DNA from: an uncultured Acidobacteriota bacterium
GTDB lineage: Bacteria > Acidobacteriota > Vicinamibacteria > Vicinamibacterales > UBA2999
DNA: 64,000 nt
Assembly: GCA_963841895.1 (NCBI GenBank)
Contig: CAWJEO010000020.1
Coordinates: 87,852 to 151,851 of the forward strand
Direction: 5' to 3'
Below, one piece after another: positions 2,704 through 55,062 of the stretch (its first letter is position 1; every line of letters begins with the position of its first letter). Position numbers and translations under genes: made by a program. The notes beneath the pieces were generated by a model. That model saw only the letters and a program-made list of their open reading frames with translations, was not told the DNA's origin and ran no database searches.

Positions 2704-2950
2704 CAGGTGCGATGGGTGCGCCAGGTGCGACGGGTGCGGCAGGTGCGGTGCGGTGCACGGGTGCGTCAGGTGCAGGTGCGACAGGTGCACCGGTGCGGTG
2801 CCACTGGTTCGTGCGCAAACTCAGGCGGCGCGAGCTTCTGCTAGCATCGCACCTGCGCACCCTGGGCACCTGCGCACCTGTCGCACCGCGCCGCACCGCG
2901 CACTCGCACCTGACGCACCCGATCGCACCTGACGCACCCGTCGCACCCGG
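2704..2950. repeat. Inverted pair of about 9-nt tandem-repeat arrays, NNNGGTGCG x about 11 (2704-2802) facing CGCACCNNN x about 11 (2848-2948).
   Basis: Read directly: caggtgcga tgggtgcgc caggtgcga cgggtgcgg caggtgcgg ... and cgcacctg cgcaccctg ... cgcacctga cgcacccgt cgcacccgg. It lies between the divergent starts at 2448 (-) and 2958 (+). Confidence 0.85.
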
Positions 2951-2957
2951 TAGCCCC

Positions 2958-3851
2958 ATGCCCGTCATCGAATGCATCCCGAACGTCAGCGAAGGCCAAC
3001 GCCCTGAAGTCGTCGAGCAGCTCACCGCGGCGATTCGCGGCACCGAGGGTGTGCGCCTGCTCGACGTGCAGTCGGATGCGACTCACCACCGGTCGGTTCT
3101 GACCTTCGTCGGCGATCGGCAGCCGATTCGTGACGCGGTACTGCGGCTCTACGAAGCGGCGATCGCGGCGATCGATCTCCGGAACCATCGCGGCGAGCAT
3201 CCGCGGCTCGGCGCCGTCGACGTCTGCCCGTTCGTCCCGATCGAGGGCGTCACGCTGCAAGACTGCGCGGCGCTCGCGCGCGAGGTCGGGAGCGAGGTCG
3301 CGTCGCGCTTCGACCTGCCGGTGTTCCTGTATGAGGACGCCGCGACGAGCCCGGCCCGGCGGAATCTCGAGGACATCCGTCGCGGCGAGTTCGAAGGACT
3401 CTCGACCAAGCTCCAGCAGCCCGAATGGAAACCGGATTTCGGGCCGGCAGCGCCGCACCCCTCGGCCGGCGCGACCGTGATTGGCGCGCGGATGCCGCTC
3501 ATCGCCTACAACATCAACCTCGCGACCGATCGCCTCGACGTCGCCAAGAAGATCGCCGCCGCCATCCGCATGAGCAGCGGCGGCTACCGCTTCGTCAAAG
3601 CCATGGGCCTCGCCCTCGAAGACCGCGGCATCGTCCAGGTCTCGATGAACCTGACCAACTACGAGAAGACGCCGATCTTCCGCGTGTTCGAAACCGTGAA
3701 GCGCGAAGCCGCGCGCTACGGCGTCAGTGTTCTGGAAAGCGAGATCGTCGGACTGGTGCCCTCAGCGGCGCTCACACAGACGGCCGAGTTCTATCTGCAG
3801 CTCGAAGGCTTCCGCGCTGAACAGGTCCTCGAGTCGCGCTTGCGCCAGTAG
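2958..3851 (+). CDS. ftcD: Glutamate formimidoyltransferase (FtcD N-terminal/formiminotransferase domain only).
   Basis: MPVIECIPNVSEGQRPEVV...HHRSVLTFVG...RLGAVDVCPFVP...YRFVKAMGL...ESEIVGLVP is a full-length match to the formiminotransferase family. The ORF is intact. The ORF-track start at 2712 is a repeat-encoded extension. Confidence 0.9.
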   Translation: MPVIECIPNVSEGQRPEVVEQLTAAIRGTEGVRLLDVQSDATHHRSVLTFVGDRQPIRDAVLRLYEAAIAAIDLRNHRGEHPRLGAVDVCPFVPIEGVTLQDCAALAREVGSEVASRFDLPVFLYEDAATSPARRNLEDIRRGEFEGLSTKLQQPEWKPDFGPAAPHPSAGATVIGARMPLIAYNINLATDRLDVAKKIAAAIRMSSGGYRFVKAMGLALEDRGIVQVSMNLTNYEKTPIFRVFETVKREAARYGVSVLESEIVGLVPSAALTQTAEFYLQLEGFRAEQVLESRLRQ

Positions 3852-3874
3852 AGGCCGTGCCGGCGACGGCGGGA

Positions 3875-5234
3875 TCATTCCCGCGCGGGTCCAATGCCGT
3901 ACGCCTTCATCTTCTTGTAGAGATTGCTCCGCTCGACGCCGAGGATCTCCGCCGTGCGCGAGATGTTGCCGCCTTGCGCGGCCAGGGCCTGCAGGATGTA
4001 GTTGCGCTCGAACTGCTCGCGCGCGTCGTGGAGGGTCAGCGTCGATGCCGCCGCCGGCGTGGCCACCGCGACCGCGTCGTGACTCAGGAACGCCAGATCC
4101 TGCGCGGTGATCGTGTCGCCCGGCACCATGATCATGAGCCGCTCGATGACGTTCCGCAGCTCGCGGACGTTCCCCGGCCACGGATAGTGCTGGAGCCGGG
4201 CCCTCGCTTCCGGCGCCACCCGCTTCGGCCGCCGGCCGTACTCCGCCGCCATCAACGCCATGAAGTGATCGGCGAGGAGCGGGATGTCGTCCTGCCGATC
4301 GCGCAGCGGCGGCACGAAGATCGGGATCACGTTGAGGCGGAAGTAGAGATCCTCGCGAAACGCGCCGGCTCGGATCTCCGACGGCAGATCCTTGTTGGTT
4401 GCGGCCAGCACGCGCACGTCGACCGTGATCCGCTGCGTGCCGCCGACGCGCTCCATGACCTGCTCCTGCAGCACCCGCAGCACCTTGGCCTGCGTTTTCA
4501 GGCTCATGTCGCCGATTTCGTCGAGGAAGATCGTGCCGGTCGTGGCCTGCTCGAAGCGCCCCGGCTTGTCGGCGACGGCGCCGGTAAACGCGCCCTTCAT
4601 GTGCCCGAACAGCTCCGACTCGATCAGCTCTTCGGGAATCGCCGCACAGTTGACCTCGACGAACGGACGCGTTCCGGCGCCGGCTGAGCTGATGCACGGT
4701 GCGCGCGACGAGTTCCTTGCCCGTGCCATTCTCGCCGTAGACCAGCACGCGGCCGTTGGTCGGCGCGGCCGTCTCGACCTGCTCGCGCAGCTGCCGCATC
4801 GCCAGGCTCTCGCCCACCATGACGAGCTGACGATCGACCCGCGCCCGCAGCGCCCGGTTCTCGGTCTCGAGGTCGCGCTGTCGCAGCGCGTTGCGCACGA
4901 CGAGCACCGTCTTCTCGAGCGACAGCGGCTTCTCGACGAAGTCGAAGGCGCCCATCTTGATCGCCCGGACCGCCGACTCGATGTTGCCATGGCCCGAGAT
5001 CATCACGACTTGCGCGTCCACTTTGCGCTCGCGCAGGCGCTGCAGCGTGACGAGGCCATCGACACCCGGCAGCCAGACGTCGAGCACGATGACGTCATAC
5101 GCCGCGCGGGTCGCCCGATCGAGGCACTCTTCCCCGCTCGCGGCCGCCTCGACGTCGAACCCCTCGTCGCGGAGCACGCCGCTCAGCGACGAACGGACGC
5201 CCGGCTCGTCATCGACAATCAGAATGGATGCCAC
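3875..5234 (-). CDS. Sigma54-dependent response regulator (REC + AAA+ + Fis HTH; NtrX/NtrC-like), with one frame break near 4685.
   Basis: REC domain [17 protein letters not shown]...[17 protein letters not shown]+ domain [40 protein letters not shown] motif [23 protein letters not shown]. Split over ORFs 3762-5234 and 3875-4990. Confidence 0.9.
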
Positions 5235-5254
5235 GAAGATTCACTCGTCCGCCG

Positions 5255-10877: not shown

Positions 10878-12557
<1,680 letters not shown>

Positions 12558-12652
12558 GTTCCGAGACGGAACACAAGAACAAAGGAACAAGAGAACCAGG
12601 AACGGTCAATGCCGGAACTCCGGAACTCCGGAACGGTTACTGGAACAACTCG
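12558..12652 (+). repeat. Tandem array of about 8-nt units with a GGAAC core, about 11 units, all direct.
   Basis: acggaaca caagaaca aaggaaca agagaacc aggaacgg ... ggaactcc ggaactcc ggaacggt, directly after the groEL stop. Confidence 0.8.
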
Positions 12653-12661
12653 AGCATTCAA

Positions 12662-12694
12662 GGCCCGGTGGCGCAAATCCACCGGGCTTTTTTT
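12662..12694 (+). terminator. Rho-independent terminator of groESL.
   Basis: ggcccggtgg cgcaaat ccaccgggc followed by ttttttt. Confidence 0.85.
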
Positions 12695-12744
12695 ATGTCA
12701 TCCATCCATTTTTCCGGGTTGCGAAATCCCTCCCTCTGGTCCCT

Positions 12745-12798
12745 AATTCCCTCGATTCCAGATCGCCAGATCTCCAGATTCCTGATCTCCAGATCTCT
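12745..12798 (+). repeat. Tandem array of 8-nt units with a CCAGATC core.
   Basis: ccagatcg ccagatct ccagattc ctgatct ccagatct at 12758-12796, just upstream of the amidase RBS (ggag at 12811). Confidence 0.8.
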
Positions 12799-12820
12799 TT
12801 ACGCTCCGAAGGAGCCCGAC

Positions 12821-14449
12821 ATGATTCGCGTTCGTGCGCTCGCGCTCGTTCTGGCGGCGGTCCTCGCCGCCTGGTCGCCGGTCGCGGCCAGAAAGTCCGT
12901 CGATCTCGATTCCGCCACCGTCGCCGACCTCAACGCGGCGTTCAAGGCCGGCACGCTGACGTCGGAGCGGCTGGTCCAGCTCTCGATCGCGCGGATCGAG
13001 GCCTACGATCGCAAGGGGCCCAACCTTCGCGCGGTTCTGACGCTGAATCCGAAGGCACTCGACACCGCACGCGCGCTCGACGCGGAGCGCAAGGGCAAGG
13101 GCCCGCGCTCGCCGCTGCACGGCATTCCCATCGTCCTCAAGGACAACTACGACACCTTCGACCTGCCGACCACTGGCGGCTCGGTCCTGCTCGAAGGCTC
13201 GCTCCCGCCAGATGACGCCTTCGTGGTGAAGAAGCTCCGCGACGCCGGCGCGATCATCCTGGCGAAGGTCAACCTGTCGGAGTTCGCTTCCGGCGGCGCG
13301 TTCAGCTCACTCGGCGGCCAGACGCGCAACCCACACGATCCCACCCGCTCGCCATCGGGCTCGTCGGGCGGGACCGGCGTCGTCCATCGCCGCCGGCTAC
13401 TCGACGATCGGCCTCGGCACCGACACCGGCGGCTCGATTCGCGGGCCGTCGACCGCCAACGGCATCGTCGGCCTCAAGCCCACGCATGGGCTGCTCAGCC
13501 GCGACGGCATCATCCCGCTCGCGCTGAGCTTCGACACCGGCGGCCCGATGGCTCGCAGCGTCTACGACGTGCGCGGCGCCTCGGGGTCATGACCGGCATC
13601 GATCCGGCCGATGCCGCGACGAAGAAGAGCGAAGGGCGATTCGAGAGCGACTACACGAAGTTCCTGCAAGGCCGATGCGCTGAAAGGCGCGCGGATTGGC
13701 ATCGCGCGCGACTTCCTCGGCGCGGATCCCGACGTCGACTGGGTGGTGGACGCCGCCCTCGAGGCCATGAAGAAGGCCGGCGCGACGCTCGTCGACGTGC
13801 GCTATCCGCAAGTGGCTGCTCGACGCCAAGGAGGAGTTCTACAGCGCCATCCGCCGTCCCGAATTCACCGTCCAGATCGAGGACTACCTGGCGACGCCTC
13901 GGACCGAAATACCCGAAGACGATCGCAGAATTGATTGAACGCGCGGAGCAGTTCACGGCGCACGCGCGCCGACGGCGCCGGTCCCAATCCGAGCGCGGTG
14001 GAGCCTTGTTCAAGCGGGAAGCTCGAGAGCGGCACGATGGACGGACTATCGCTACACCACCGTCCGCGATCACGGACTGCCGCTGGTGCGCGCCGTGGTC
14101 GAGGGCTGCTGACGCCCAACGGCTCGACGCGATCGTGTATCCGACCTCGTCGCGACGTCCCGGTCTCATCGCCGACCCCGGCGTCAGCGCCGCCGCGAGC
14201 CTGGCGCGATCCTTGGGGCAAGGGGCTCGGGCCACGAACATCGCCAACCTCACCGGGTTTCCCGATCTGATCGTTCCGGCGGGATTCACCGGCGATCAGC
14301 TGCCCGTCGGCCTGTCGTTCTTCGGGCCCGCGTTCAGCGAAGGCGAAGCTGCTGGCGCTCGGCTACAGCTTCGAACAGGCGACGCAGGCGCGGCGGCGGC
14401 CGGTGACGACGCCGGCGCTCGCCGGCGAGACGCGATCAACATCCCGTGA
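12821..14449 (+). CDS. Secreted amidase (amidase-signature family), with several frame breaks and an uncertain 3' end.
   Basis: ATG at 12821. Signal peptide [23 protein letters not shown]. Family motifs [36 protein letters not shown] and [14 protein letters not shown]. Confidence 0.8.
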
Positions 14450-14486
14450 GCATTCGTCACAGCGTCGGTCACTGATCACGAGACGC

Positions 14487-14531
14487 GAACTGCAGGTCGA
14501 AACCTCGAAACCTCGGAACTTCAGTTCTTCG
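14487..14531 (+). repeat. Exact 8-nt phased repeat tcgaaacc / tcgaaacc / tcggaact / tcagttct, with an inverted gaactg...cagttc frame.
   Basis: Read directly at 14497-14528. Confidence 0.7.
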
Positions 14532-14554
14532 CTGGCGTAACGGATAATGTGCTG

Positions 14555-16688
14555 ATGCGCTATCTCGTGTTGTTGTTCGCTGTGTCGACGACGCTGGCGC
14601 CGCTGCGCCGCCGAGGCGCAGACACCAGCCGCAAGGAACGCCGCGCCTGACGCTCCCACCGGTGACGGTCACGGCGCAAAAGGAGCCGGCCGATCGGCAG
14701 AACGTGCCGATCAGTGTGACCGCGGTGCCCGAAAGAAACGCTGTGGGACGCCAAGGTCACCGCGGTCAGCGAAGCGTCGGTTTACGCGCCGAACGTCTGG
14801 TTCAACGAATTCTCGGTCCGCAAGCTCAGCAACGCGTTCTTCCGCGGCATCGGTTCGAGCCCGAACAATCCCGGCGTCACGACCTACATCGATGGCGTTC
14901 CGCAGCTGAACGCCAACTCGTCGAACATCGAGTTCAGCGGCGTCGGTCAAGTCGAGTTCGTGCGCGGCGCGCAGAGCACACTGTTCGGACGCAATACGCT
15001 CGGCGGCGTCATCAACATCGCCAGCGAGCGGCCATCGCTGACCGGCTGGACCGGCAACGTCGTCGCGCCATTTGGCGACTACTCCACGCGCGAGGTGCGG
15101 GCCGCCGTCTCCGGGCCGATCAACGATCGGCTGGCGGTCGGCGCCTCAGGGGGGCCGCTCGGATCGCGACGGCTTCACCGTCAACACGCTCAGCGGCAAC
15201 AGCCTCGACTCGCGCGAGGCGACCTTCGGCAAAGCGCAGGTGCTGTTCGTTCCGAGCCGCGCGTTCGAAGCGCGCGTGATCGTGTCCGGCGAGCGCGTCG
15301 CGCGACGGCGACTACGCCTTGAGCGATCTCGACGGCCTCGCGCGAGCGACCGTTCGAGACGGCGCGCGACTTCGAGGGCCGCCAGAATCGCGACCTCTTC
15401 AACACCACGTCGGCCACCCGCTACGAGAGGGCCCAGCGTTCTCGGTCACGACGACGACCGGATTCGTGAACTGGAAGACCGAGGACACGACCGACCTCGA
15501 CTACTCGCCGCTGCCCGCCGCGCGCCGCAACAACAACGAAGAGGATTTCCAGTTCACGCAGGAAGTCCGCCTCGCCTCCGCGGCCGCCGCGCCGATCGCC
15601 CTGTCGTCGACGGCCTCTCTCAAGTGGCAGGCCGGCGTCTTCTTCTTCTCGCAGAACTACGATCAGTCGGCCGTGAACAGCCTCGCGCCGTTCGTGCTGT
15701 CGCCGCAGATTCCCATTCGCGGTCGACTCAGACCTCGCCGCTCGCCGAGCTCGAGGATCGCGGCATCGGCCTCTACGGCCAGGGCACCGTGACCTTGAAC
15801 GAGCGGCTCGACGTGACCGCGGGCGCGCGCTTCGATCGCGAGAGCAAGGACGCGCTGCTCGAGTCGTTCCTGACACCGGCGATCTTTCCCGGCAGCACGG
15901 TCGACGCGAGCGAGGACTTCTCGAACGTCTCGCCGCAGTTCGCCGTCGCCTATCGCGTCTCACGCCGACCAGATGGTCTACGTCTCGGCCGGCAGCGGCT
16001 TCAAGGCCGGCGGGTTCAATCCCGCGTCGCCGCCGGGGAGCGAAGGCTACGGCGAGGAACACACCTGGAACTTCGAGGGCGGCTGGAAGTCCGTCGTCGC
16101 TGGGCGGGCGGCTGGTCGCCAACGCCGCGGTGTTCTTCATCGACTGGGACGACCTGCAGCTGAATCTGCCGAACCCGTTCGTGCCGGCCCAGTTCTACAT
16201 CGCCAACGTGGACGGCGCGCGCAGCCGCGGCGTCGAGTTCGAAGCTCACCGGCGCGGCCGAGCGAAGGCATCGACGTGTTCGGATGCGTTCGGCTACACG
16301 CGCGCGACGTTCAAGGACGGCACGATTTCGAGCGGCCTGGACGTGACCGAGAATCGGCTGCCGAACACGCCGAGTTCACCTTCACGTGCCGGCGACGCAG
16401 GTGTCGCGGCCGGTCACCGAGCGGTCAGCGTCTACGGCCGCGGCGAGATGGCGTCCTACGGATCGGTTTTTCTATGACGACTTGAACCGCGCGTCGCAGG
16501 ATGCGTACGCCCTGGCCAACTTCCGCGTCGGCGCGCGCAGCCGGCTGGTGTTCGGCGAGTTCTGGATCAAGAACGCGTTCGACACGCACTACATTCCGCT
16601 CGCGTTCCCCTACTCCACGCAATCGGGCTTCATCGGTGAAAGCGGGAGACCGAGGACACTCGGAGTGAGCGTCGGCGTGACTTTCTGA
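14555..16688 (+). CDS. TonB-dependent (siderophore-type) outer-membrane receptor, with many frame breaks.
   Basis: MRYLVLLFAVSTTLAP. Plug region VTVTAQKEPADRQNVPISVTAV, GIGSSPNNPGVTTYIDGVPQ, VEFVRGAQSTLFGRNTLGGVINI. Barrel region LKWQAGVFFFSQ, VYVSAGSGFKAGGFN, IANVDGARSRGVEFE. C-terminal residue F. Confidence 0.85.
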
Positions 16689-16699
16689 GCTGAACGCCT

Positions 16700-16798
16700 G
16701 TCAGTTTTCAGTTTCAAGTTACCAGTTCAAAGGGCGCTCAGCTCGGCATGTGCGCACCCGAGGCCCTTTGAACTGGCAACTGGTAACTGTGAACTGAC
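16700..16798. repeat. Long imperfect palindrome made of 7-nt NNCAGTT units, with 36-nt arms (16700-16735 and 16763-16798).
   Basis: gtcagtt ttcagtt tcaagtt accagtt caaagggc compared with the reverse complement of the right arm, gtcagtt cacagtt accagtt gccagtt caaagggc. It lies between convergent gene ends. Confidence 0.85.
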
Positions 16799-16811
16799 GG
16801 TCGCCTCCGCT

Positions 16812-17317
16812 CTACTTCTCGGCCTTCCCTCTTTCAATCCGTCCGAACATGTGGCCGCCGCCGCGGCCGGCGTGCGCCCATGTCCCGGCATACAGATCGC
16901 CGTAGAAGAACACGCGCGCCGTGAACGTGCCCATGCCGGGAATCGAGGCATCGGTCATCAGGATGATCGGCGTGTCATCGGCAAACGTCATGCGCACGAC
17001 GATCGGCAGCGGTCACGCCCGATTCGCCGATCTTGGCGTTGAAGCGCCACTGATCCGGGCCCGACCTTCTCAACGTTGTAGAGATCGTAGCGGTCGGGCG
17101 TCGCCGCGCGATCTTCGCGGCCGCGAATCGTGAACCGGCCGACCAGCGCCGCGCCGTTCATCTTTTCGGCGAACTCCCGCTCGACTGCCGGCAGCGTCGC
17201 CGGATCGATGGCGCATCCCATGCCCGTCTTCGCCACGAGCCATCCGGCGGCGAAGACCACGAGGAGCGCGATCGACCAGATGCCGAGCGTTTCATCCACG
17301 ATCCTGCCCTGCGCCAT
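16812..17317 (-). CDS. Hypothetical membrane-anchored protein with one or two frame breaks.
   Basis: ORFs 16988-17317 (TM segment IWSIALLVVFAAGWLVA) and 16812-16997 (FADDTPIILMTDASIPGMGTFTARVFFYGDLYAGTW) join into one product. I recognise no family. Confidence 0.45.
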
Positions 17318-25013: not shown

Positions 25014-27312
25014 CTATTTCTCGTCCCTGTCTTGCGGGCCCGCTCGTTGCGGCCTGGACGCTGCTTCTTTCGCCGTGCGGCGTCCTTGATCTTGCGCCGT
25101 TGCTCCGGCGTGCCCAGGCGCTGCTCCTTCTTCGGCCGCGCCTGGCTGCGGCTGGCGCCGCGCCGCCGTTCGTCGGCGCGCACCGCCTCGAGCACCTCGT
25201 CGATGCCGAGGTCGATCTGACGGCGCTCGAGGTCGACCCGGATCACCTGCACGACCACCTTGTCGCCGAGGCGGTACTTCTTGCGCGTGTTCTCGCCGAA
25301 CAGCGTGTGACTCTGCTCGCTGTAGCGATAGTAATCGTCGGCCAGCGTCGAGACGTGGACCAGGCCCTCGACGTAGTGCTCGACGAGCTCGACGAACAGC
25401 CCGAACGAGGCGACGCCAGTCACGTAGCCCTCGAAGACGTCGCCGACCTTGTCGGCCATGAAACGGACTTTCTTCCACTGAAGAATCTCGCGCTCGGCCT
25501 CAGCGGCCCGCCGCTCCATCTCGGAGGTATGACGGCCGGCTTCCGGCAGGTCATCGTCCAGCTCGTCGCGCCGTTCGTCCGACGACCCGACCGCGGCGCA
25601 GTTCGCGCAGGGTGCGATGGACGACCAGGTCCGGATACCGGCGGATCGGCGACGTGAAGTGCGTGTAGGTCGGCGCGGCCAGACCGAAATGGCCGACGTT
25701 CATCGAGTCGTAGCGCGCCTTCTGCATCGTCCGCAACATCAGGAACGCGATGGGACGCTCTTCGGGTGTGCCCTTGATCCGCTCGACCAGCCGCTGGAAG
25801 TGCGACGGACGAATGATTCCCGACGGCGCGCCGAGACTGAACCCGAGCGAGGTCACGAACTCGTCGAACTCGGCGACCTTGAGCGGATCGGGCGGCTCGT
25901 GGATGCGGTAGAGCGTCGGCATCTCGTTCTGCTCGAGGTGAGCGGCCACCGTTTCGTTGGCGAGCAGCATGAACTCTTCGATCAGCCGATGCGCGATGTT
26001 CCGCTCGCGCGCCACGATGTCTTCGATCAGTCCCTCGTCGTCGAGCAGCACTTTGGGTTCGGGGAGGTCGAAGTCAACCGAGCCGCGCCGGTGCCGCCGC
26101 GCGTGAAGGACGTGAAAGAGCTCCCCCATCAGCTCGAACGTCGGCACCAGGCTCTCGTACCGCGCCGACCGTCGCCGGATCCTTGTCGGTCAGAATGGCG
26201 TTCACCTCGGTGTAGGTCATCCGCTCGGTGCTGCGGATGATGCCGTCGTGCATCTCGTAACGGACGACCTCACCTCGCCGATCCACCTCCATCAGACACG
26301 ACTGCACGAGCCGATCGACGTGCGGGCGGAGGCTGCACAAGCCGGTCGCGAGCCCCTCCGGAAACATGTGAATGGCGCGCTCGGGAAAGTAGACCGACGT
26401 GCCGCGCTCGTAGGCCGCCTGATCGAGCGCCGTCCCTTCCGTGACGTAGTGCGACACGTCGGCGATGTGGACCCCCAGCCAGATATGGCCGTTCGCCAGG
26501 CGTTCGATCGAGATCGCGTCGTCGAAATCGCGGGCATCCTCGCCGTCGATCGTGACGACGATGCGATCGCGAAAATCGGTCCGGCCCTTGAGATCGCGTT
26601 CCTTGATCGACGTGCCGAGGCGGCGCGCTTCCTCGATCGCTTCCGGTGGGTGCTCGTCCGGAATGCCGTACTTCTGCAGGATGATCTCGGTATCGACGCC
26701 TGGCTCGTCGATCCCGCCGAGCACACGCACGATCCGCCCCAGCGGGCCACGCGACGGCGTCGGCCAGCGCGTAATCTCGACGGTCACCATGTCACCAGGC
26801 TCAGCGTCCTTGGCGTCGCCGCGCGGAATCTGGACGTCGGCCACCAGCCGGCGATCGAACGGCAACACAAAGCCAAGCCCCGCATCGTCCACATCGAACC
26901 GTCCGACCACGGTCTGAGCACGACGCTCGAGAACCTGGACGATCCGGCCTTCGGCCCGACCGTCGGCGCGGTGCCGCTCGATGCGAACGACGACGCGATC
27001 GCCGTGCAGCGCCTCGGCGACATTGGGGGCGGCAATGAAGATGTCGCCCTGCAGGCCGTCGGGCGCCCGCTCGGGTGTGACGAAGCCGAAGCCGGAGGGA
27101 TGGCCTTCGAGACGGCCGACCACGAGGTCCATGCGATCGGCAAGGCCGTAGCGATTGCCACGGACGAGGACAAGCGAGCCGTCGGCAACGAGCGAGCGCA
27201 AGTGTCGCTTCACGGCGACCCGTTCGTCTCGAGGAACCCGAAGGAGCTTCAACAGCTCACGCGCGGTCGCCGGATGGTGGACCTGCTCGCGCAGCTGTCC
27301 GGAGGAGCTCAT
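25014..27312 (-). CDS. rnr: Ribonuclease R with two or three frame breaks.
   Basis: DGEDARDFDDAISIE, VYFPERAIHMFPE, HFGLAAPTYTHFTSPIRRYPDLVVHR, an S1 domain FEGYVTGVASFGLFVEL and a K/R-rich tail. Confidence 0.92.
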
Positions 27313-27336: not shown

Positions 27337-27436
27337 AGGTGCCTAAGGTGCCTGGGGTGCCTTGGTGCCGGGGTGCTGGTGCCAAGGGTGCTTGATGGTG
27401 CGCCGGGTGCTTGGGTGCTTGGATGCTTGGGTGCTG
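27337..27436 (+). repeat. Direct tandem array of about 12 units of 7-9 nt with a GGTGCY core.
   Basis: aggtgcct aaggtgcct ggggtgcct tggtgccg gggtgct ggtgccaa gggtgctt ... tgggtgct tggatgct tgggtgct. It fills the spacer between the rnr start and the upstream gene's stop. Confidence 0.85.
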
Positions 27437-30785: not shown

Positions 30786-32229
<1,444 letters not shown>

Positions 32230-32232
32230 GGC

Positions 32233-32298
32233 GAGGTTCCGGGGTTCCTGGGTTCCGAGGTTCCGGGTTCAGACCTCGAACCTGGAACTGGAACCTTG
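32233..32298. repeat. 8-nt phased GGTTCC array facing GGAAC units. It occupies the whole pckA-gatB spacer.
   Basis: aggttccg gggttcct gggttccg aggttccg ggttcag acc tcgaacct ggaactg gaacc. Confidence 0.85.
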
Positions 32299-32303
32299 AA
32301 GCG

Positions 32304-33903
32304 TCAGACGTTCGGCCCTGCAGCAACGACCGCCGGATCGACGTCCGCCGTAAACGTCTTGAAGTTCTCGACGAACATCGCGGCGAGCTTGGCCGCCTGC
32401 GCGTCGTACGCGGCCTTGTCCTGCCAGGTGCTGCGCGGATCGAGCACCTCGGCGGCGACGCCGGGGCACGACGTCGGCATGTCGAGGTTGAAGACCGGAT
32501 GGCGCTGGTACGACACGTTGTCGAGTGCGCCCGAGAGCGCCGCCGTGATCATGGCGCGCGTGTACGCGATCTTCATCCGCGATCCGACCCCGAACGGCCC
32601 GCCCGTCCAGCCGGTGTTCACCAGCCACACCCGCGACTTGTAACGGGCGATGCGCTCGCCCAGGCCGCGCGCGTAGACGTTCGGATTGAGCGGCAGGAAC
32701 GGCGCGCCGAAGCAGGTGCTGAACGTCGCGCTCGGGTCCTTCACGCCCTTCTCGGTCCCCGCCACTTTCGCGGTGTAGCCGGACAGGAAGTGGTACATCG
32801 CCCCTTCAGCCGACAGTCGCGCGATCGGCGGCAGGACACCGAAGGCGTCCGCGGTCAGCATCACGATGTTGGCGGGATGACCGCCAGCGCCGGACGGCAC
32901 CGCGTTGTCGATGAAGTCGATCGGATACGCCCCGCGCGTGTTTTCGGTCAGCGACGCGTCGTCGAGGTCCAGCGCCCGCGTCTCCGGGTCGATGACGACG
33001 TTCTCCAGGACCGTCCCGAACCGGCGCGTCGTCTCGTAGATCTGCGGTTCGGCCTCGGCCGAGAGCCGGATCATCTTCGCGTAGCAGCCGCCTTCGAAAT
33101 TGAAGATGCCCTGATCGCTCCAGCCGTGCTCGTCGTCGCCAATCAGCTGCCGATCGGGGTCGGACGACAGCGTCGTCTTGCCCGTTCCGGAGAGCCCGAA
33201 GAAGAGCGCCGTATCGCCGCCCTTGCCGACGTTCGCCGAGCAGTGCATCGACAGCACGCCCTTCAGCGGCAGGAGGTAGTTGAGCACCGTGAAGATGCTC
33301 TTCTTGTTTTCGCCGGCGTAGCTCGTCCCCGCAATCAGCACTTCGCGGGTGCCGAAGTTCACGACGATGGCGACGTCCGAGCGGGTGCCGTGGCGCGCGG
33401 GGTCGGCCCGGAAACTGGGAGCGGTGATGACGGTGTACTGCGGCGAGAAACTCGCCAGGTCCGCGGCTGGCGGAACGATGAACAGGTTGCGGACGAACAG
33501 GTTCTGCCAGGCGAGCTCCTGGATGAAGCGCACCGGCAGCCGGTAGGTCGGGATCGGCGCCGGCATACAGGTCCTGGACGTAGAGTTCACGCGTCGACAG
33601 GTGCGCCAGCATGTCGCGCTTCAGCGTCTCGAACAGCGTCGCCTCGATCGGGCGGTTCACTTTCCCCCACGCGACGTGCGTCTCGCTCGAGGGTTCCTTG
33701 ACCACGAACTTGTCGTTCGGCGAGCGGCCGGTGTGGGCGCCGGTGCGGCAGACGAGCGGGCCGTCGGCCGCCAGTTCGCCTTCGCGCCGGGCAAGCGCGT
33801 GCTCGTAGAGGAGAGGCGTCGAGAGGTTCCAGTGCACGGGGCCGGAGGTGTGCACGCCCTGCTGATCCAGTCCGCGCGCGGGCCCCGCGTGAGTCGTTGA
33901 CAT
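32304..33903 (-). CDS. pckA: Phosphoenolpyruvate carboxykinase (ATP), with one frame break near 33560.
   Basis: [28 protein letters not shown] and GGCYAK. Confidence 0.95.
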
Positions 33904-34123
33904 CGAAAAAGCTCCTGAAAGGTGCTGGGGGCCGTCCCGGTCGGGCGCAAAGCATCGTGCTGCGCACCCGGCCGGGCCGTGATGCCGGACACACGCCGCG
34001 GCTGGTCTAACCCCTCAATTCGCTCATGTTACCTATCCATCCGCCCGGACTGCCGTCCGTTCGCGACCAAGTTCCGCCGGCTCACGAGCGAATTGATTGT
34101 TCCCTCAGAGTGAACGGTAGGGT

Positions 34124-37248: not shown

Positions 37249-37686
37249 ATGAAAATGTCCCGTAAGTTGTTTATTTGTCTCACGTTGTCTTTGCTACCCC
37301 TCCTGTGGCCAGAGGCCGCGCATGCCCAGCGGTTCCGGTGGTGGATGGACGATCGATTCCAGCGCGAGCTGGCCATCACGCCGGACCAGACGTCCCGCAT
37401 CGACGCGATCTTCCAGGCCGCCCAGCCCGCGCTGCGGGCGCAGCAGCGCGCCCTCTCGAAGCTCGAGGACGAGCTCTCGAAGATGGTGCTCGAAGCGAAC
37501 GTGCAGGACTCCGAGGTCGAGCACTTCGTCGGGAAAGTCGAGGCGGCGCGGGCCGACCTCGGCAAGAGCCGGACGATGATGATCTTCCGGATGCGACGGA
37601 TCCTGACGACCGAGCAGCACGTGAAGTTGCAGAAGCTGTTCGAGCAGAACGAGAAAGACCGCCGCGGCAAGGGTCACGGCGAGTAG
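37249..37686 (+). CDS. Periplasmic Spy/CpxP-family (LTXXQ motif) protein.
   Basis: Signal peptide plus ITPDQTSRI and LTTEQHVKL repeats. Intact. Confidence 0.7.
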   Translation: MKMSRKLFICLTLSLLPLLWPEAAHAQRFRWWMDDRFQRELAITPDQTSRIDAIFQAAQPALRAQQRALSKLEDELSKMVLEANVQDSEVEHFVGKVEAARADLGKSRTMMIFRMRRILTTEQHVKLQKLFEQNEKDRRGKGHGE

Positions 37687-39441: not shown

Positions 39442-40888
39442 ATGCGCAAATTGCTCATCGTGGGGATCGTGGTCGCGGCCGGAGCCGCGATCTATTTCGG
39501 CTTCATCAGGCGCGACACCGGCGGCTGCCGCCGAACAGGGTCAGAACGCTCAAGCAGGTCAGCGCGGTCAAAGCGGTCGGGCGCGGCGGCAATCCGGGTG
39601 GAGGTCCTGGCGGCGGCGGTTTCGGCGGCGGGGGCTTTGGCGGCCCCGGCGGCGGCGGCGGTTTCCGGCCCCCGATGACCGTCGAAGTGGCCAAGGTTCA
39701 GCGCGGCAAAATTTCGTCGTTTTTGACCGTCGTTGGCAATCTGGTTGGCGATCAGCACGGTCGAAGTCGTGCCGCGAACCGGCGGCCGGGTCACGTCGAT
39801 CAGCGTCAAGCTCGGCGATCGCGTGCGCCGTAATCAGGTGGTCGCCAAGATCGAGGATCGCGAGATCGTCGAACAGGTGAACCAGGCCGAGGCCTCGCAC
39901 AAGGTCGCGGAAGCGACGATTCGCCAGCGGCAGGCCGACCTCGAGCTCGCGAAGACCAGCGTCGAACGCTCGCGCAACCTGTATGGCCGCCAGCTCCTGC
40001 CCAAGCAGACGCTCGACGACGCCGAGGCGCGCTACAGCGCCGCGCAGGCGCAGGTCGATCTCGCCTACGCGCAGCTCGCGCAGTCGGCCTCACGGCTGGA
40101 GGAGCTGCGAATCAACCTCGGCAACACCAACGTCGTGTCGCCCGTTGACGGCTTCGTCGCCAAGCGCAACGTCGACCCGGGTGCGTGGGTCTCCAACCAG
40201 GCCGGCGTCGCGTCGGTCGTCGACATCTCCTCGCTCCGACTGGTCGCCAACGTCGTCGAGAAGGACCTTCGGATGGTGAGCGCCGGCGACCCCGCGGTCG
40301 TCGAGGTCGACGCGTTTCCCGGCGAGAAGTTCAACGGCAAGATCGCGCGCGTCTCTCCGATCCTCGATCCCGCGACGCGCACCGCGCCGATGGAGATCGA
40401 GATTCCCAACGCCAGACTTCCGGCTCAAGCCCGGCATGTATGCCAAGGTCACCCTCGAGGTCGAATCGAAGGAGAACGTCCTGCTCGATTCCGAAGGTGG
40501 CGCTGGTCGACTCCGAAGGCCAGCGCGGCGATTTACCAGGCCAACGGTGAAAGCCGCGCCGCGTTCAAGCCGGTCAAGATCGGCATCGAGGATGCCGAGC
40601 GCGTCGGAGATTCTCGAAGGCCTCACGGAAGGCGAAATGGTCGTATCCACCGGCGCCGGCGCGTTGCGCCGCAACGACCAGCTCGTGACCGCCGGCGGCA
40701 ACGCCGGCCCGGGTGGTCCGAGTCCTGGCCGCGGCGGGCCAGGCCAGGGCGGCCAGGGGCGAGGGCGGCCGCGGGCGGCGAAGGTGGTCGCGGCGGCCAG
40801 GGCGCCCCGGGGCAAGGGACGCCAAAGTAGCAGCGCCAGCAGTCAGAGCATCGTCTCGAAGTTGAAACGCAGAGCGAACGAGCACTGA
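39442..40888 (+). CDS. Efflux RND periplasmic adaptor (membrane-fusion protein) with a Gly-rich linker, five or more frame breaks and an uncertain end.
   Basis: MRKLLIVGIVVAAGAAIYF, GGGFGGGGFGGPGGGGGF, RVTSISVKLGDRVRRNQVVAKIED, NVVSPVDGFVAKRNVDPGAWV and GMYAKVTLE. Confidence 0.85.
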
Positions 40889-40924: not shown

Positions 40925-43900
40925 ATGAGTATTCCGCGTCTAGCCATTCATCGTCCCGTGACGATGTTCATGATCAGCTTCGTGGTGATTCTGCTGGGAG
41001 CGATTTCGCTCACCCGCTTGCCGGTCGATCTGATGCCGGAAAGCGAGTTCCCCAGCATCACCGTTCGCGTCAACTACTCCGGCGTCGGGCCGCTCGAGAT
41101 CGAGGAACTGGTCACGCGGCCGATCGAACAGGCGGTGTCGGCGATCGCCGGCCTCGAGCAGGTCAACTCGACCTCGTCCGAAGGCAACAGCCAGGTCCGG
41201 CTGCAGTTCGCGTGGGGCACCGACCTCAACGAAGCGGCCGACGAAGTGCGCACCCGCGTCGATCGCGTCCGCGGCCGCATGCCCGAGGATGCCGACGCGC
41301 CCACGGTCTTCAAGTTCGACTCGAACTCGATGCCGATCATGGGCATCGGCGTCGAAGGCGACTACGACCCGGTCACGCTGCGCGAGCTCGCGACCAACGA
41401 CCTGTCGCCGCGCCTCGAGCGCGTCGAGGGCGTCGCCGCGGTCACGATCGACGGCGGCTTGCGCCGCCAGATTCACGTCGACCTCTCGCGCGAGAAGATC
41501 ACCGGCCTGAACCTCTCGGTCGATCGCGTCACGCAGGTGCTCCGCAGCGAGAACCAGAACATCCCGCTCGGCGAAGTCGACGACGCCGACCGCCGCTTCC
41601 TGCTCCGCAGCCCCGGCCAGTTCACCAGCATCGACGACATCCGCAACCTGATCATCACCTCGACGCGCGGACGAAGGCGTGCCGGTGTACCTCAAGGACA
41701 TCGCCAACGTCAGCGACTCGACCGAGGATCGCCGCTCGGTCACGCGCATCAACGGGCGTCCCGGCATCCGCATGCGCGTCACCAAGCAGTCGGGCAAGAA
41801 CACGGTGCAGGTCGCCGAGGGCGTGCGCGCCGAGATCGAGCGCATCAACCGCGAAGTGCCGACGCGTGCGGCTGGCGGTGCTCGACGATCAGTCGAAGTT
41901 CATCGAGCGCTCGATCAACAGCGTCAAGGAGCACGCGGCGATCGGCGGCTTCCTGGTCGTCCTGATCATCTTCCTGTTCCTCCGCGACGTCCGCTCGACG
42001 CTCATCATCTGCACGTCGATTCCGATTTCGGTCATCGGCACGTTCGCCCTGCTCTACTTCGGCGGCTACACGCTCAACACCCTCACCTTCGGCGGTCTTG
42101 CCCTCGGCATCGGCATGATCGTCGACGCGGCGATCGTCGTGCTCGAGAACACCTATCGGCACCTCGAGATGGGCAAGGACCGGATGACCGCGGCCGATCG
42201 ACGGCAGCGAAGAGGTCTGGTCGGCGATTCTGGCGTCGACGCTGACGCACATCGCCGTCTTCGTGCCCGATGCTCTTCCTGACCGGCGTGGCGAGCATCA
42301 CGTTCGGCTCGCTGGCCGCCGTCGTGTCGTTCTCGCTGGCGATGTCGCTCTTCGTCGCGGTGACGATCGTCCCGGTGCTGTGCTCGCGGTTCCTCAATCC
42401 GCCGCATCACAACGACGCAGCGCCAGGGGATGCTCGGCGCCCTGTATCGCTTCAGCGAGCGTGTCGCTGGACGGCATCGACAACGCCTACGCCCGAGCTG
42501 CTGCACGTCGCGCTCGCGCACCGGCCGACGGTGTTCGCCACCGGCATCGTGCTCTTCGTGCTGGCGCTCTATCTCGGCCGGTTCATCGGCGTCGAGCTGC
42601 AGCCGACGACCGACGAAGGCGAAGTCACGGTCGACGCCGAACTGGCGGTCGGCACCCGCGTCGAGATCACCGAGGCCGTGCTGCATCCGCCTCGAGGAAG
42701 CCATCAAGGCGAGCGTGCCCGAAGCGACGATGCTCATCACGTCAGCCGGCGGCGGCGGTGGTGGCGGCGGCGGCTTCGGCGGCGGCTCGGGGCATCGCGG
42801 CAATGTCAACGTCCGCCTGATCCCGAAGGACGAACGGCTGCGGTCGAGCGAAGAGATCGCGATGACGCTGCGGCGTGAGCTCTCCGGCATTCCCGGCGTC
42901 ATCGTGCGGGCCCGGCCCTCGGGCGGCCAGCAGATGCGCGGCATGCCCGGCGGCAACCAGGGCGGCGACGGCAGCCGCTTCTCGGTCGAGATTCGCGGTC
43001 ACGAGCTCGACATCTCGAAGCGCGTCGCCGCAGGACGTGAAGACGCTGCTCGACTCGACGCCCGGCATCGCCGATTCGCGCGTCGGCCGCGAAGAAGGCC
43101 GTCCGGAAATCGCCGTCCGCGTCGATCGCGACAAGGCCGCGCTGCTCGGCCTCAGCGTGACCGGCGTCGCCAACACGATCCGCACCAACCTCGCCGGCAC
43201 CCAGGCCGCGATGTTCCGCGAGGCCGGCAACGAATACCCGATCGTCGTCCGGCTCCGCCAGGAGGATCGCGGCGAGATCGGCTCGGTCGGCGACGTCCTG
43301 CTGTCGACGCCGCAGGGCCAGGTGCTGCCGGCGAAGAACGTCATGGTCACGGCCCGCGAGCAGGGTCCGGTCCAGATCGAGCGGAAGAACCAGGAGCGCA
43401 TCCAGCGCGTGAACGCCGAAGTCGAAACGACGCTGAGCGAAGGCGTCGACCGCCGTCCAGGCACGGCTGCCCGAGATTCAGGTGCCGCAGGGCTTCTCGG
43501 TCGGATTCGGCAACGAAGTCGAGGAGCAGGCCAAGTCGTTCCGCGAGCTGCAGCTCGTGCTCGTCCTCGCCATCCTGCTCGTCTACACGGTGATGGCGTC
43601 GCAGTACGAGTCGCTGCGCGATCCGTTCATCATCATGTTCTCGATTCCGCTGGCCGCGATCGGCGTGGTCGGCGCGCTGCTCCTGACCAAGACGCCGTTC
43701 AGCATGCAGGCCTACATCGGCATCATCATGCTGGCCGGCATCGTCGTCAGCAACGCCATCCTGCTGGTCGACTACGCCAACACCCTCCGGCACCGCGACA
43801 AGATGGGCATCCGCGACGGCGATCGAGCTGGCCGGGTCGTCACCGCCTGCGCCCGATTCTGATGACGTCGGTCTGCACGATGCTCGGCCTCGTGCCGATG

Positions 43901-53524: not shown

Positions 53525-53928
53525 ATGGCAACTCGACTTTCTCCGGTCCCGAACACCCCACAGCGCGTCCGCAACCCGACAGCCGTCGTCGTTGCCGGCC
53601 CGACTGACCTGGAAGGATGCGTCGGGTGCCGTGCGGTTCACGTCGGTCACCACCCGCGACATCAGCGAGGCCGGCGCCTTCGTCGAGGCGGACAACGCCG
53701 CGGCGATTCCGCTCTACCGCATCGTGCACCTGCAGCTGGAGCGCGGCGCGCGCGAGCTCAATGGCCTTCCGGAGCGGCTGCGCGAAGGCCGGGTGCTGTC
53801 GGCGGTGTGGCGTGTTGGCCCGACGCCGGGCGTCACGTGGAACGCCCGCCGGCTATGCGCTGCGCTTCCTGGTCGATCCCGGCGTGCGAACAGCGGCAGT
53901 CGCGCCGTCGATGGCGGTCGCCAGCTGA
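53525..53928 (+). CDS. PilZ domain protein with about two frame breaks.
   Basis: PARLTWKDASGAVRFTSVTTRDISEAGAFVEADNAAAIPLYRIVHLQLE. The N-terminus MATRLSPVPNTPQRVRNP is in a shifted frame. Confidence 0.6.
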
Positions 53929-53988
53929 CATTCCGACATGTCGCGATCTCAGGATGATTGGCGATCGTCAGCGATCACGCAGGTTCGC

Positions 53989-54030
53989 TTAGATCACCAG
54001 ATCGCCAGATCGCCAGATCACCAGATCTCA
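53989..54030 (+). repeat. Exact 8-nt phased CCAGATCR array of four units or more.
   Basis: ccagatcg ccagatcg ccagatca ccagatct at 53997-54028. It overlaps the last codons and the stop (54018) of the MBL gene on the minus strand. Confidence 0.85.
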
Positions 54031-54925
54031 GCGCCAGCTCGTTTTCGCCAGTAGCGCGCCAGTCCCAGCCACAACTGATCGAACGGCCGCGGCCGCTTCC
54101 GTCGACTTCGCATCTTCCTCCGACAGCACCCGACGGGCGTCGGCGCGCATGTCCTCGATGAACCGGCGGATGCGCTCTTCGTCGGTCCCTCCGCGCGAGC
54201 GTGGCTCGGACGAATGCGGCCTGTCGCGCCAGCACGCCCCGGAACTGGCGCAGGTGTTCGGCCGGCTCGTCGACAACGCCGAAGTGCGTGAGGACGAGCG
54301 ACGACGGCCGCCAGCTCTCGATAGATCGCGAGGCTCTTCTCCCAGAGCTCGAGATCGATGTCGGGCGGCGGCGTCGGCGCCTTGATGTAGCCGCTTCGGC
54401 GACGCGAATGCCGGCGGTGTCGCCGACGAACGCTTGCCGGTCCCGGGATCGAGGTAGCTCACGTGGTGCGAGGCGTGTCCCGGCGTGTACGCGACCTCGA
54501 GTGTGCGGCCGGCGACGTCGAGCCGTTCGCCGCCGCTCAGCACCTTCAGTCCGATCCGCCGGCACCGGCCGGAACTCGCCCCAGAAGCGATCCATGTTCG
54601 GCGCCGTAGAGCCGCGTCGCGCTCGCCAGCAGCTTCGACGGATCGACCATGTGCGGCGCGCCGCGCTCGTGCACGTAGAGCAACCGCGCGCGGCAGCCGC
54701 GCGAGCAGCGTGCCAGTCGCGCCGGCATGATCGAGATGGATGTGCGTCAGCAGGATCGCCTGCACGTCGTCGAGCCGCAGCTCGTGGTCGTGCAGCCCGC
54801 TCTCGAGTGCCGGCAGGCAGGACGTCGGCCCGGGATCGATCGAGCGTCAGCCCGGACGGCCCCTGCAGCACCGCCGTCCCGATCACATGCCGAAGACCGA
54901 GAAAGTGGAGATCGATGAAATGCAT
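54018..54925 (-). CDS. MBL-fold metallo-hydrolase with four or more frame breaks.
   Basis: MHFIDLHFLG, LLTHIHLDHAG, LEVAYTPGHASHH and the tail PFDQLWLGLARYWRKRAGAEIW-stop. Confidence 0.8.
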
Positions 54926-54930
54926 GGCGT

Positions 54931-55062
54931 CAGGTGACTCAGGTGCCGAGGTGCCAGAGTGCCAAGGTGCCAGTGTGCTCACGTGCCGGGGTGCTCACGT
55001 GCCAGGGCAGCTATCGAGCACGATGGCACGAGAGCACCGTGGCACCCTGGCACTCTGGCACC
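54931..55062. repeat. Inverted pair of 8-nt phased arrays, nine RGTGCY units facing six GRGCAC/TGGCAC units.
   Basis: aggtgccg aggtgcca gagtgcca aggtgcca gtgtgctc acgtgccg gggtgctc acgtgcca ... gagcacga tggcacga gagcaccg tggcaccc tggcactc tggcacc. Confidence 0.9.

Follow-up and report, generated by a model that had tools for sequence, protein, structure and literature searches.

Degenerate 7-9 nt tandem arrays in the intergenic spacers of Vicinamibacterales, possible products of replication slippage

Introduction

Nine arrays of degenerate tandem repeats, built from units of 7-9 nt, lie between genes in a 64,000-nt stretch of DNA from an uncultured Acidobacteriota bacterium of the order Vicinamibacterales (assembly GCA_963841895.1, contig CAWJEO010000020.1, positions 87,852 to 151,851; hereafter the window), and they raise the question of whether such arrays form a genuine class of sequence and, if so, whether they serve the genes beside them. 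The analysis presented here reveals that the arrays exist, that they are confined to spacers and occur throughout the lineage, and that they turn over fast, have symmetric arms and are dispensable at individual loci. We infer from this that they arise by slippage and template switching and lack a primary function, and we assign a probability of about 0.5 to the reading that they are hypervariable tandem repeats with short units, generated by slippage and belonging with the minisatellites or long simple-sequence repeats, and not a locus-specific regulatory device. Vicinamibacterales are among the commonest soil bacteria, and are known almost solely from metagenome-assembled genomes (MAGs).

Results

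Detection of the arrays

Tandem Repeats Finder (TRF), run on the window, called each site at which an earlier note, made by reading the sequence, had placed an array, with 3-12 copies per array. Its calls of period 8-9 cover 2702-2797, 2847-2947, 12569-12634, 12757-12797, 14497-14519, 16770-16796, 27337-27435, 32235-32300, 53991-54027, 54940-55006 and 55018-55062, and higher-order periods of 16-19 and 27 nt were called as well. Two chain detectors were set against order-3 Markov simulations of the window. The first, requiring at least four exact 5-mer cores spaced 6-10 nt apart, returned 9 arrays against a simulated mean of 0.73 (maximum 4); the second, requiring at least three exact 6-mers spaced 7-9 nt apart, returned 10 segments against 0.17 (maximum 1), all ten of them inside arrays already listed. 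Neither chain detector yielded a further array in the window; an extra detector match at 37455-37493, with an irregular 13-nt spacing and located in coding sequence by a crude gene call, is probably due to chance. Fixed-lag autocorrelation (78% matches at one lag) recovered just two of the window arrays, because unit length varies from unit to unit. The arrays are thus confirmed as a real class of degenerate 7-9 nt tandem arrays in spacers. They are the following (+, forward strand; a full stop, no strand assigned), with one terminator listed for context.

2704..2797 (.): array 1, left arm; GGTGC(G) repeated about 11 times with linkers of 0-4 nt; TRF period 9/18/27
2798..2847 (.): array 1, unique central segment, the hairpin tip in the fold of 2695-2955
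2848..2950 (.): array 1, right arm, reverse complement of the left; (C)GCACC repeated about 11 times with linkers of 3-5 nt
12558..12652 (+): array 2; about 9 G(G)AAC cores in irregular units, most of them at 8-nt spacing
12660..12697 (+): groEL intrinsic terminator (context); 12-bp GC-rich stem plus T run
12745..12798 (+): array 3; CCAGATCN units, single arm
14487..14531 (+): array 4; about 3 units of TCGRAACY; TRF 2.9 copies; small GAACTG/CAGTTC inverted pair
16700..16733 (.): array 5, left arm; four NNCAGTT heptamers
16734..16765 (.): array 5, unique central palindrome and loop, CAAAGGGC...GCCCTTTG
16766..16798 (.): array 5, right arm, reverse complement of the left; AACTGNN heptamer x4
27337..27436 (.): array 6; one arm with 11-12 units of GGTGC(Y), each of 6-10 nt
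32233..32298 (.): array 7; GGTTCC x5 in the first arm, GGAAC x3 in the second
53989..54030 (+): array 8; one arm of CCAGATCN x5 with a period of exactly 8 nt
54931..55005 (.): array 9, left arm; eight (G)GTGC(C) units with a period of exactly 8 nt and 4-nt linkers that are nearly random
55018..55062 (.): array 9, right arm, reverse complement of the left; six (G)GCAC units

All nine arrays of the earlier note are therefore present, but not all are of equal quality: array 4 has just about three units and array 2 is irregular. Nor do they occupy nine spacers, as had been stated, but eight, since a single spacer, the one separating groEL from an amidase gene, contains both array 2 (12558-12652) and array 3 (12745-12798). 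Their units of 7-9 nt and linkers of 0-5 nt set them apart from clustered regularly interspaced short palindromic repeats (CRISPR), with repeats of about 23-50 nt and spacers of similar length, as the note had already argued. No Rfam family reached its gathering score and no tRNA was found anywhere in the window.

For comparison we used 80 related loci around ftcD (L001-L080; handles beginning with L denote comparison loci throughout). The FtcD protein of the window is 69-78% identical to proteins from MAGs that carry a Vicinamibacterales or Acidobacteriota label. The 80 loci stem from many independent assemblies, which, to go by the contig names, were produced with differing assemblers from short and long reads.

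Cores and linkers

In the larger window arrays the cores show a per-site identity of 0.95-1.0, whereas linkers vary in length and have a pairwise identity of 0.33-0.59, which upholds the earlier description of the unit as a conserved core with variable positions. The cleanest case is the left arm of array 9 (54931-55005), in which eight GTGC cores are separated by the linkers cgag, caga, caag, cagt, tcac, cggg and tcac. In the related loci, core-to-core spacing is 7 nt in 193 instances, 8 nt in 248 and 9 nt in 146, spacings of 6 nt (18) and 10 nt (16) being rare, so that the modal spacing is 8 nt. At least 25 distinct cores were tabulated, some of them recurrent within and across genomes, including GGTGC, GGAAC/GGTTCC, AACTG/CAGTT, GATTG, GGATT, AGATT, CACGAAG and GGTAATCG. 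Within the window, unrelated loci share the cores GGTGC (3 loci), GGAAC (3) and CCAGATC (2), and arrays of one core class have nothing but the core in common; the longest exact match, 15 nt, is also the longest stretch common to arrays 3 and 8, both made of CCAGATCN units. Single-linkage clustering of arrays by shared 5- or 6-mers gives one large component. Young arrays elsewhere are perfect repeats (in L063, CTGCCTC x6; GCATCTTGA x11), and the largest array seen, a 400-nt run of CACGGA-type units upstream of ftcD in L012 (2533-2940), has a higher-order repeat of about 32 nt.

Inverted arms

The four arrays that the earlier note had described as two arms in opposite orientation are indeed predicted to fold: array 1 (2695-2955) at -191 kcal/mol, z -12; array 9 (54925-55070) at -99 kcal/mol, z -11, with 23 consecutive pairs; array 5 (16690-16810) at -59 kcal/mol (z -7) on one strand and -67 kcal/mol (z -8) on the other; and array 7 (32225-32305) at -34 kcal/mol, z -2.8. 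Two-arm arrays have very long, nearly continuous predicted stems of 30-100 bp, and single-arm arrays lack predicted structure, with z near 0. By a strict test, at least 17 of 46 intergenic arrays in the related loci have an inverted partner, and the true two-arm share is about 40-50%, nearer half than the strict count. Several two-arm arrays flank a unique central palindrome, as at 16734-16765 in the window and in the centre of an array in L150.

The arms mirror each other beyond their cores. Shuffling unit order gave p values of 0.01-0.04 in 6 of 15 arrays, among them arrays 1 (0.012), 5 (0.02) and 9 (0.01) of the window, and the 15 values combined by hand with Fisher's method yield roughly 5e-5. 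Strand asymmetry of folding energy, taken as a signal of selection on RNA, was absent in these comparisons, the sense strand folding better in 8 cases and worse in 5; with no systematic strand advantage, the palindromes look like features of the DNA.

Distribution in relatives and in other phyla

Across the 80 ftcD loci, 50 arrays fall in 33 kb of intergenic sequence (1.52/kb) and 8 in 466 kb of coding sequence (0.017/kb), an enrichment of about 90-fold. About 20% of the spacers of at least 30 nt hold an array, and all types of spacer do so alike: 15 of 76 co-directional (20%), 12 of 64 divergent (19%) and 8 of 37 convergent (22%). Array density is 0.116 per kb in the Vicinamibacterales ftcD loci and about 0.14 in the window, compared to 0.006 in Alphaproteobacteria, 0.015 in Chloroflexota and 0.029 in Gemmatimonadales among control loci, which were the multi-phylum matches of a search with pckA. 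The earlier note had held that absence from independent reads or assemblies of the same organism, or a genome-wide scan with neither intergenic enrichment nor recurrent cores, would undo its claim; in relatives, the arrays recur and are strongly confined to spacers.

The same evidence bears on the notion that the arrays are an artefact of a noisy long-read assembly. The window does contain many frameshifted housekeeping genes, broken into adjacent ORFs in differing frames at 872-2661, 14555-16688, 25551-28713 and 30786-33994; they comprise TonB-dependent receptor genes and those for RNase R (rnr), glycerate kinase (DUF4147/MOFRL), gatB and pckA. Some of the variation in unit length is moreover variation in G-run length, a typical long-read error. 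The window assembly is thus probably an indel-prone, long-read one, a genome full of pseudogenes being less likely, and some units of 8 versus 9 nt that differ by the length of a G run may be sequencing errors. Yet over 100 Vicinamibacterales assemblies, independent of one another, contain arrays of the same kind, some of them at the orthologous site, and this essentially excludes an artefact as their source; the chance that they are one is vanishingly small.

A scan of a sequence collection for GGTGC arrays returned at least 119 stretches. Among the matches listed, about one quarter are labelled Acidobacteriota or Vicinamibacterales and about half Actinomycetota, the rest being scattered; the Actinomycetota ones are mostly perfect octamer repeats and come from many Streptomyces, Kitasatospora and Micromonospora genomes. 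Ascertainment bias was removed by counting only those arrays of the same 8-kb stretches that are built on another core, and among these listed matches such arrays reach 0.082/kb in Acidobacteriota-labelled sequence versus 0.017/kb in Actinomycetota-labelled sequence, where most of them are chance chains rich in GC. Arrays with this two-arm design were also found in Gemmatimonadaceae (L150, 893-1037), in Phycisphaeraceae (L140, 5908-6027) and in an unassigned soil metagenome contig (L212, 4048-4122 and 5822-5988), and the phenomenon is hence wider than Vicinamibacterales. A cyanobacterial contig (L188) carries TAACTGA x4 and several other heptamer arrays, and GGGATTY arrays occur in some Vicinamibacterales loci (L040, L050).

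As for the organism itself, a lookup of the window GroEL in public assemblies returned no record, and an exact 40-mer from its ftcD had no match in metagenome contigs. Relatives of the window amidase in metagenomes are at most 53% identical, save for two partial 78% matches from an unrelated genome of lower GC content. None of these searches yielded a sequence of the same species.

Turnover at orthologous spacers

Turnover was measured in 7 pairs of loci that are 84-96% identical. Array columns are 59% gaps, with an identity of 0.79 where aligned, versus 11% gaps and 0.91 in other non-coding columns and 2% gaps and 0.92 in coding columns. In the pair L045/L051, which is 95% identical, the promoter-like boxes on both sides are identical and the array between them has been rebuilt, the near-perfect hairpin of L045 (-46.9 kcal/mol, z -9) being degraded in L051 (-27 kcal/mol, z -1.9). 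The centre and right arm of an array in L066 are absent from L022, unit number is 2 in L074 versus 5 in L080, and both arrays of L010 are missing from L040. Cores are replaced as well: in the spacer between pckA and gatB the arms are GGTTCC in the window and, unrelated to these, AGAGTCGAA in L285, L279 has a plain hairpin, and the spacer is just 35 nt long in L280 and 2 nt in L281. At any given locus, then, the array is dispensable, and the functional family that the earlier note had implied finds no backing in spacers whose orthologs lack the array or switch its core while their flanks change more slowly.

The spacer upstream of ftcD bears on the matter in both directions. GGTGC arrays precede this gene in at least ten species, with FtcD proteins about 70-78% identical, and other species have AGATTTC/AATCTGA arrays or none. 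In a clade with short spacers the array has a TATAAT-like box belonging to the left gene on one side and, on the other, a TGCAATAAGCT box some 10 nt ahead of the ftcD ATG, and the unit closest to the TGCAATAAGCT box forms part of it, which suggests that arrays at ftcD have been seeded repeatedly from conserved promoter-proximal sequence. Lying between two -10-like boxes, the ftcD-spacer array is, from sequence, probably not transcribed in several relatives.

The boxes of this divergent spacer are themselves conserved, about 130 nt upstream of ftcD (L001-L080; for instance L080 2907-3000 and L045 2791-3000). GATTATAGC, which is TATAAT on the minus strand, stands about 13-20 nt from the ATG of the left gene and is flanked by an operator-like inverted repeat, GTAAGTG-N14-CACTTAC; TGCAATAAGCTGA or CTGTGGTACAAC stands about 8-12 nt before the ftcD ATG. 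Such positions suggest leaderless mRNAs or mRNAs with very short leaders.

Whole two-arm units can also be present in one relative and absent from another. In L065 (3897-5270) a two-arm array, (GGTTCGARGCACGGRG)n followed by its inverted complement, holds in its centre a frameshifted gene of the IS256 family of insertion sequences (IS; Transposase_mut), and the whole of this array plus IS (about 1.4 kb) is missing from L039, a locus with about 90% identity to it. The IS256-family element was probably inserted into a palindrome.

Position relative to genes

The genes flanking the window arrays were assigned by a Pfam scan that covered the array-flanking ORFs. Array 1 lies in a divergent spacer between a TonB-dependent-receptor-like gene (start near 2448, minus strand) and ftcD (ATG 2958, plus strand), its right arm stopping 7 nt short of the ftcD ATG. 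Array 2 begins immediately past the groEL stop codon (12555-12557) and has weak local structure. Array 3, for which no significant fold is predicted (z -0.7), ends 22 nt upstream of the amidase ATG (12821), a gene with a GGAG Shine-Dalgarno motif. The canonical groEL terminator that had been noticed between these two arrays, within their one spacer, was found at 12660-12690 and is followed by a T run. Array 4, weaker than all the others, follows the amidase stop (14449) and precedes the next gene, whose ATG is near 14555, and array 5 lies between convergent ORFs that end at 16688 (plus) and 16812 (minus). Array 6, without predicted structure (z +0.7), separates the stop of a glycerate-kinase-like gene (27438, minus) from the start of the RNase R gene (27312, minus). 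Array 7 fills the spacer from the pckA stop (32304) to the gatB start (32229-32231) on the minus strand, a few nt from the gatB ATG. Arrays 8 and 9 lie on opposite sides of the same metallo-beta-lactamase-fold (MBL-fold) gene on the minus strand, array 8 abutting its stop (54028) and array 9 beginning 6 nt upstream of its start (ATG 54923-54925). The right arm of array 9 falls within the final 22 or so codons of a cysteine-dioxygenase-like ORF (54995-55507, minus); on this point the claim that arrays stay out of coding sequence save for a few terminal codons calls for correction.

Arrays that end about 7 nt or less from a start codon are seen at ftcD (2950-2958), gatB (32229-32233) and the MBL-fold gene (54925-54931), and this proximity leaves no room for a Shine-Dalgarno motif, a situation also described for the TAACTGA repeats of Beggiatoaceae. 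At the 3' end of groEL (12558-12697), at least seven GGA motifs within the GGAAC array precede the strong intrinsic terminator, a layout that resembles sponge RNAs for CsrA of the CsrB/RsmY type. We considered reading this array as a CsrA sponge, but GGA is present in just a minority of cores.

A scan of 12400-17000 for terminators found two terminator-like sites, the strong one of groEL and a weak 5-bp stem at 16115-16131, both outside the arrays. The arrays do not match an intrinsic terminator, that is, a short GC-rich stem plus T run 3' of a gene. Given their equal frequency across spacer types, termination alone cannot explain them, a conclusion the earlier note had reached and to which the arrays lying between -10-like boxes at ftcD lend further weight.

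Relation to described repeats

The arrays agree with the definition of long simple-sequence repeats: short units head to tail, longer than expected by chance, with unit number varying between close relatives, as seen in the related loci. Such repeats, with units of 5-11 nt, have been described in Burkholderia, Xanthomonas and actinobacteria (Mrazek, Guo & Shah 2007, as summarised in PMC4679880; see also PMC4060949). As far as that summary goes, the likeness extends to unit sizes of 7-9 nt, to lengths beyond chance, to an intergenic excess, to scattering among phyla, to a preference for the heptamer range and to an origin by slippage. The arrays differ in having degenerate units, with an invariant core of 5-6 nt and near-random linkers, in consisting, in about 40-50% of cases, of two inverted arms that form stems of 30-100 bp, and in occupying about 20% of spacers.

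The earlier note had fairly named the short tandemly repeated repetitive (STRR) heptamers of cyanobacteria as the closest analogue. With these STRR heptamers, and with the TAACTGA repeats of Beggiatoaceae, Cyanobacteria and Bacteroidetes, the arrays share short intergenic units in variable copy number and a frequent location just upstream of starts without a canonical ribosome-binding site; those repeats are mostly perfect and direct, drawn from one or a few AT-rich heptamers per genome, with no palindromic arms described (PMC4679880). Here, in contrast, there are many cores, both GC-rich and AT-rich, and inverted arms, and the spacing has its mode at 8 nt within a range of 7-9 nt in an acidobacterial host, so that the arrays are not strict heptamers of the STRR kind. 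The window cores GGTGC, CCAGATC, GGAAC and CAGTT presumably also differ from the cyanobacterial STRR consensus sequences.

The earlier note knew of no equivalent in GC-rich genomes of this kind. Tandem repeats of this sort are nonetheless on record from Burkholderia, Xanthomonas and actinobacteria (Mrazek 2007, as relayed in PMC4679880), with the GGGAATC repeats of Xanthomonas as a second case (PMC4692102), and the GGTGC octamers that we found among the listed matches from Streptomyces, Kitasatospora and Micromonospora are a further instance. The heptamers GGGAATC and GGGGA(C/T)T of Xanthomonas and Nostoc resemble the present arrays in GC-rich genomic setting, 7-nt unit, non-coding enrichment and variable unit number, but they form G-quadruplexes (G4), occur preferentially as four units and with a strand bias, and are depleted between divergent ORFs (PMC4692102). 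Most cores here cannot form G4, up to 11-36 units are reached and divergent spacers are used equally. The arrays do not supply four or more tracts of at least three G at unit period, CCAGATC, GGAAC and CAGTT having no G3 tract and GGTGC units showing an occasional GGG(G) at junctions only.

Repetitive extragenic palindromic (REP) sequences of proteobacteria, along with the bacterial interspersed mosaic elements (BIME) and REP doublets forming hairpins (REPIN) that they compose, are likewise intergenic hairpin palindromes that lie in many spacers, are tolerated in operons and after stops, and serve as targets for IS (compare L065). REPs are near-identical units of 20-40 nt in hundreds of copies, mobilised by REP-associated tyrosine transposases (RAYT), whereas the arrays share just a core of 5-7 nt, their arms are themselves tandem arrays, and same-core arrays of the window have no more than 15 nt exactly in common, with nothing like near-identical copies. 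Nor do they behave as miniature inverted-repeat transposable elements (MITE), given the lack of a target-site duplication at three filled/empty junctions and of near-identical copies. In quasipalindrome mutagenesis, template switching copies changes in one arm into the other (PMC7202029, PMC8794818, PMC8604942, PMC13100816); this is a mutational process and not a sequence family, and the mirrored linkers suggest its action here. A search of the literature for such arrays in Vicinamibacteria, Vicinamibacter or Luteitalea found no description. The arrays are set apart from the described classes by a degenerate core-plus-linker unit, a high share of two-arm arrays forming long palindromes, the occupancy of about one fifth of spacers, and the lineage.

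Discussion

The slippage account that we favour would begin with a seed, a short local sequence that may be part of promoter-proximal or hairpin sequence, which replication slippage would amplify in steps of 7-9 nt and in multi-unit blocks, and the resulting arrays would expand, contract, decay and vanish quickly. Inverted duplication or intramolecular template switching (quasipalindrome correction) would create and renew the symmetry of the arms, linkers included, and selection on an RNA would play no part in it. Arrays would be tolerated wherever sequence is unconstrained, that is, between -10 boxes, after stops, near starts and in ORF tails, and secondary, tunable effects, such as a transcript stem-loop or an altered promoter geometry, would be likely but incidental. 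The perfect young arrays and the higher-order periods of 16-27 nt called by TRF fit the expectation for slippage, which has been proposed for heptamer-range repeats of other phyla (Mrazek 2007, as relayed in PMC4679880), and template switching creates, homogenises and enlarges inverted repeats (PMC8794818, PMC8604942, PMC13100816, PMC7202029).

Several observations weigh against this account. Slippage followed by decay predicts equal divergence at all positions of the unit, and the cores are invariant where the linkers are random; we found no neutral process that yields intact cores (95-100%) with near-random linkers. The same few cores recur at unrelated loci and across genomes, the restriction of the period to 7-9 nt is left unaccounted for, and GGTGC has been retained upstream of ftcD across at least ten diverged species, part of which could be explained by re-seeding from a conserved promoter-proximal GGTGCA.

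The invariant cores and their recurring vocabulary, which slippage leaves unexplained, keep alive a function as multivalent binding platforms, which we consider possible but doubtful. Each core would be the recognition motif of a DNA- or RNA-binding protein, with copy number tuning occupancy, and tandem cores with free linkers would make high-avidity sites like those of TRAP, HutP or CsrA on RNA, or like iterons and transposase-binding subterminal repeats on DNA. Invariant cores among random linkers of varying length are what such a platform should look like, as are a limited vocabulary that recurs at non-orthologous loci in different genomes, the persistence of GGTGC before ftcD over deep divergence, and the arrays that end 1-8 nt from starts lacking a Shine-Dalgarno motif, as is often the case here and for the TAACTGA repeats (PMC4679880). 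On the other hand, at least 25 cores would require equally many binding proteins, orthologous spacers have no array or a different core, cores decay between relatives that are 95% identical, and every class of spacer is occupied with equal frequency; the flanking genes are unrelated housekeeping genes, and it is the adjacent conventional operator and promoter boxes that are conserved, not the arrays. A broader version, in which the cores are under selection and the arrays are addressable, copy-number-tunable platforms for lineage-specific factors, strikes us as unlikely, along with the related idea that an unusual replication or repair machinery in Vicinamibacterales generates and tolerates palindromes with 100-bp arms. 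If it held, the factors might be proteins, or else array RNAs of complementary sequence that act in trans; Gemmatimonadota and Phycisphaerae might follow the same logic, and a function for STRR-type repeats, long looked for, could be at hand.

That the two-arm arrays act in RNA, as REP-like stem-loops that terminate transcripts, protect their 3' ends, offer sites to RNase III or occlude translation, with single arms as precursors or remnants, is in our judgement improbable. The predicted hairpins are very stable, and arrays do occur right after stop codons, between convergent genes (16700-16798) and, in the case of array 7, between the co-directional pckA and gatB. Roughly half of the arrays, however, are single-arm and unstructured (z near 0), divergent spacers carry them as often as others, the ftcD array sits between two -10-like boxes in several species and is probably untranscribed there, the sense strand has no folding advantage and hence no G-U signature, groEL has a canonical terminator of its own, and the L045 hairpin is lost in its close relative L051. 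Less probable still are non-autonomous mobile elements of the MITE or REPIN kind, in which a transposase particular to the lineage would bind the motifs stacked in each arm and so spread the elements. Their appeal lies in the architecture of two arms around a unique centre, in the presence or absence of whole two-arm units between close relatives (L010/L040, L039/L065, L022/L066) and in the IS256-family transposase pseudogene at the centre of the L065 array. Against them stand the lack of near-identical dispersed copies, same-core window arrays sharing at most 15 nt exactly, the absence of target-site duplications at the filled/empty junctions of these same three pairs, and the many single-arm arrays; the IS256 family has ordinary terminal inverted repeats, and L065 is more simply read as an insertion into a palindrome. 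Origin as footprints of target-site duplication was discarded because the arms are inverted and not direct, and readings as restriction sites, as sigma-54 elements (-24 TGGCAC) or as G-quadruplexes each fit just a subset of the cores.

If about one fifth of spacers hold a hypermutable array, often in the form of a long palindrome, the arrays would be a major and unrecognised source of variation between strains beside promoters and gene ends. They would likely cause assembly breaks and annotation errors, with ORFs reading through them, and would provide ready-made, high-resolution strain markers. The contrast between invariant core and random linker, because it is hard to obtain by neutral slippage, gives a testable handle on the function of repeats in the heptamer range (STRR, TAACTGA, GGGAATC), and the tolerance of near-perfect palindromes with 100-bp arms is of interest for research on bacterial genome stability.

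Other observations

The comparison set includes contigs (L023, L046, L048, L053, L013, L035, L080 and L026) with labels such as Bifidobacteriaceae, cyanobacterium, Cyanobacteriota, Acidimicrobiia and Betaproteobacteria. Their FtcD proteins are 70-76% identical to that of the window, like those of Vicinamibacterales-labelled loci, and several share the boxes of the ftcD spacer; the public taxonomic labels of these contigs are probably wrong.

TRF also called GGC/CGG trinucleotide and 9-nt repeats in the window at 39609-39665, 40742-40804 and 42747-42786, which are of the type expected of low-complexity coding sequence rich in Gly, Ala and Arg and are unrelated to the intergenic arrays.

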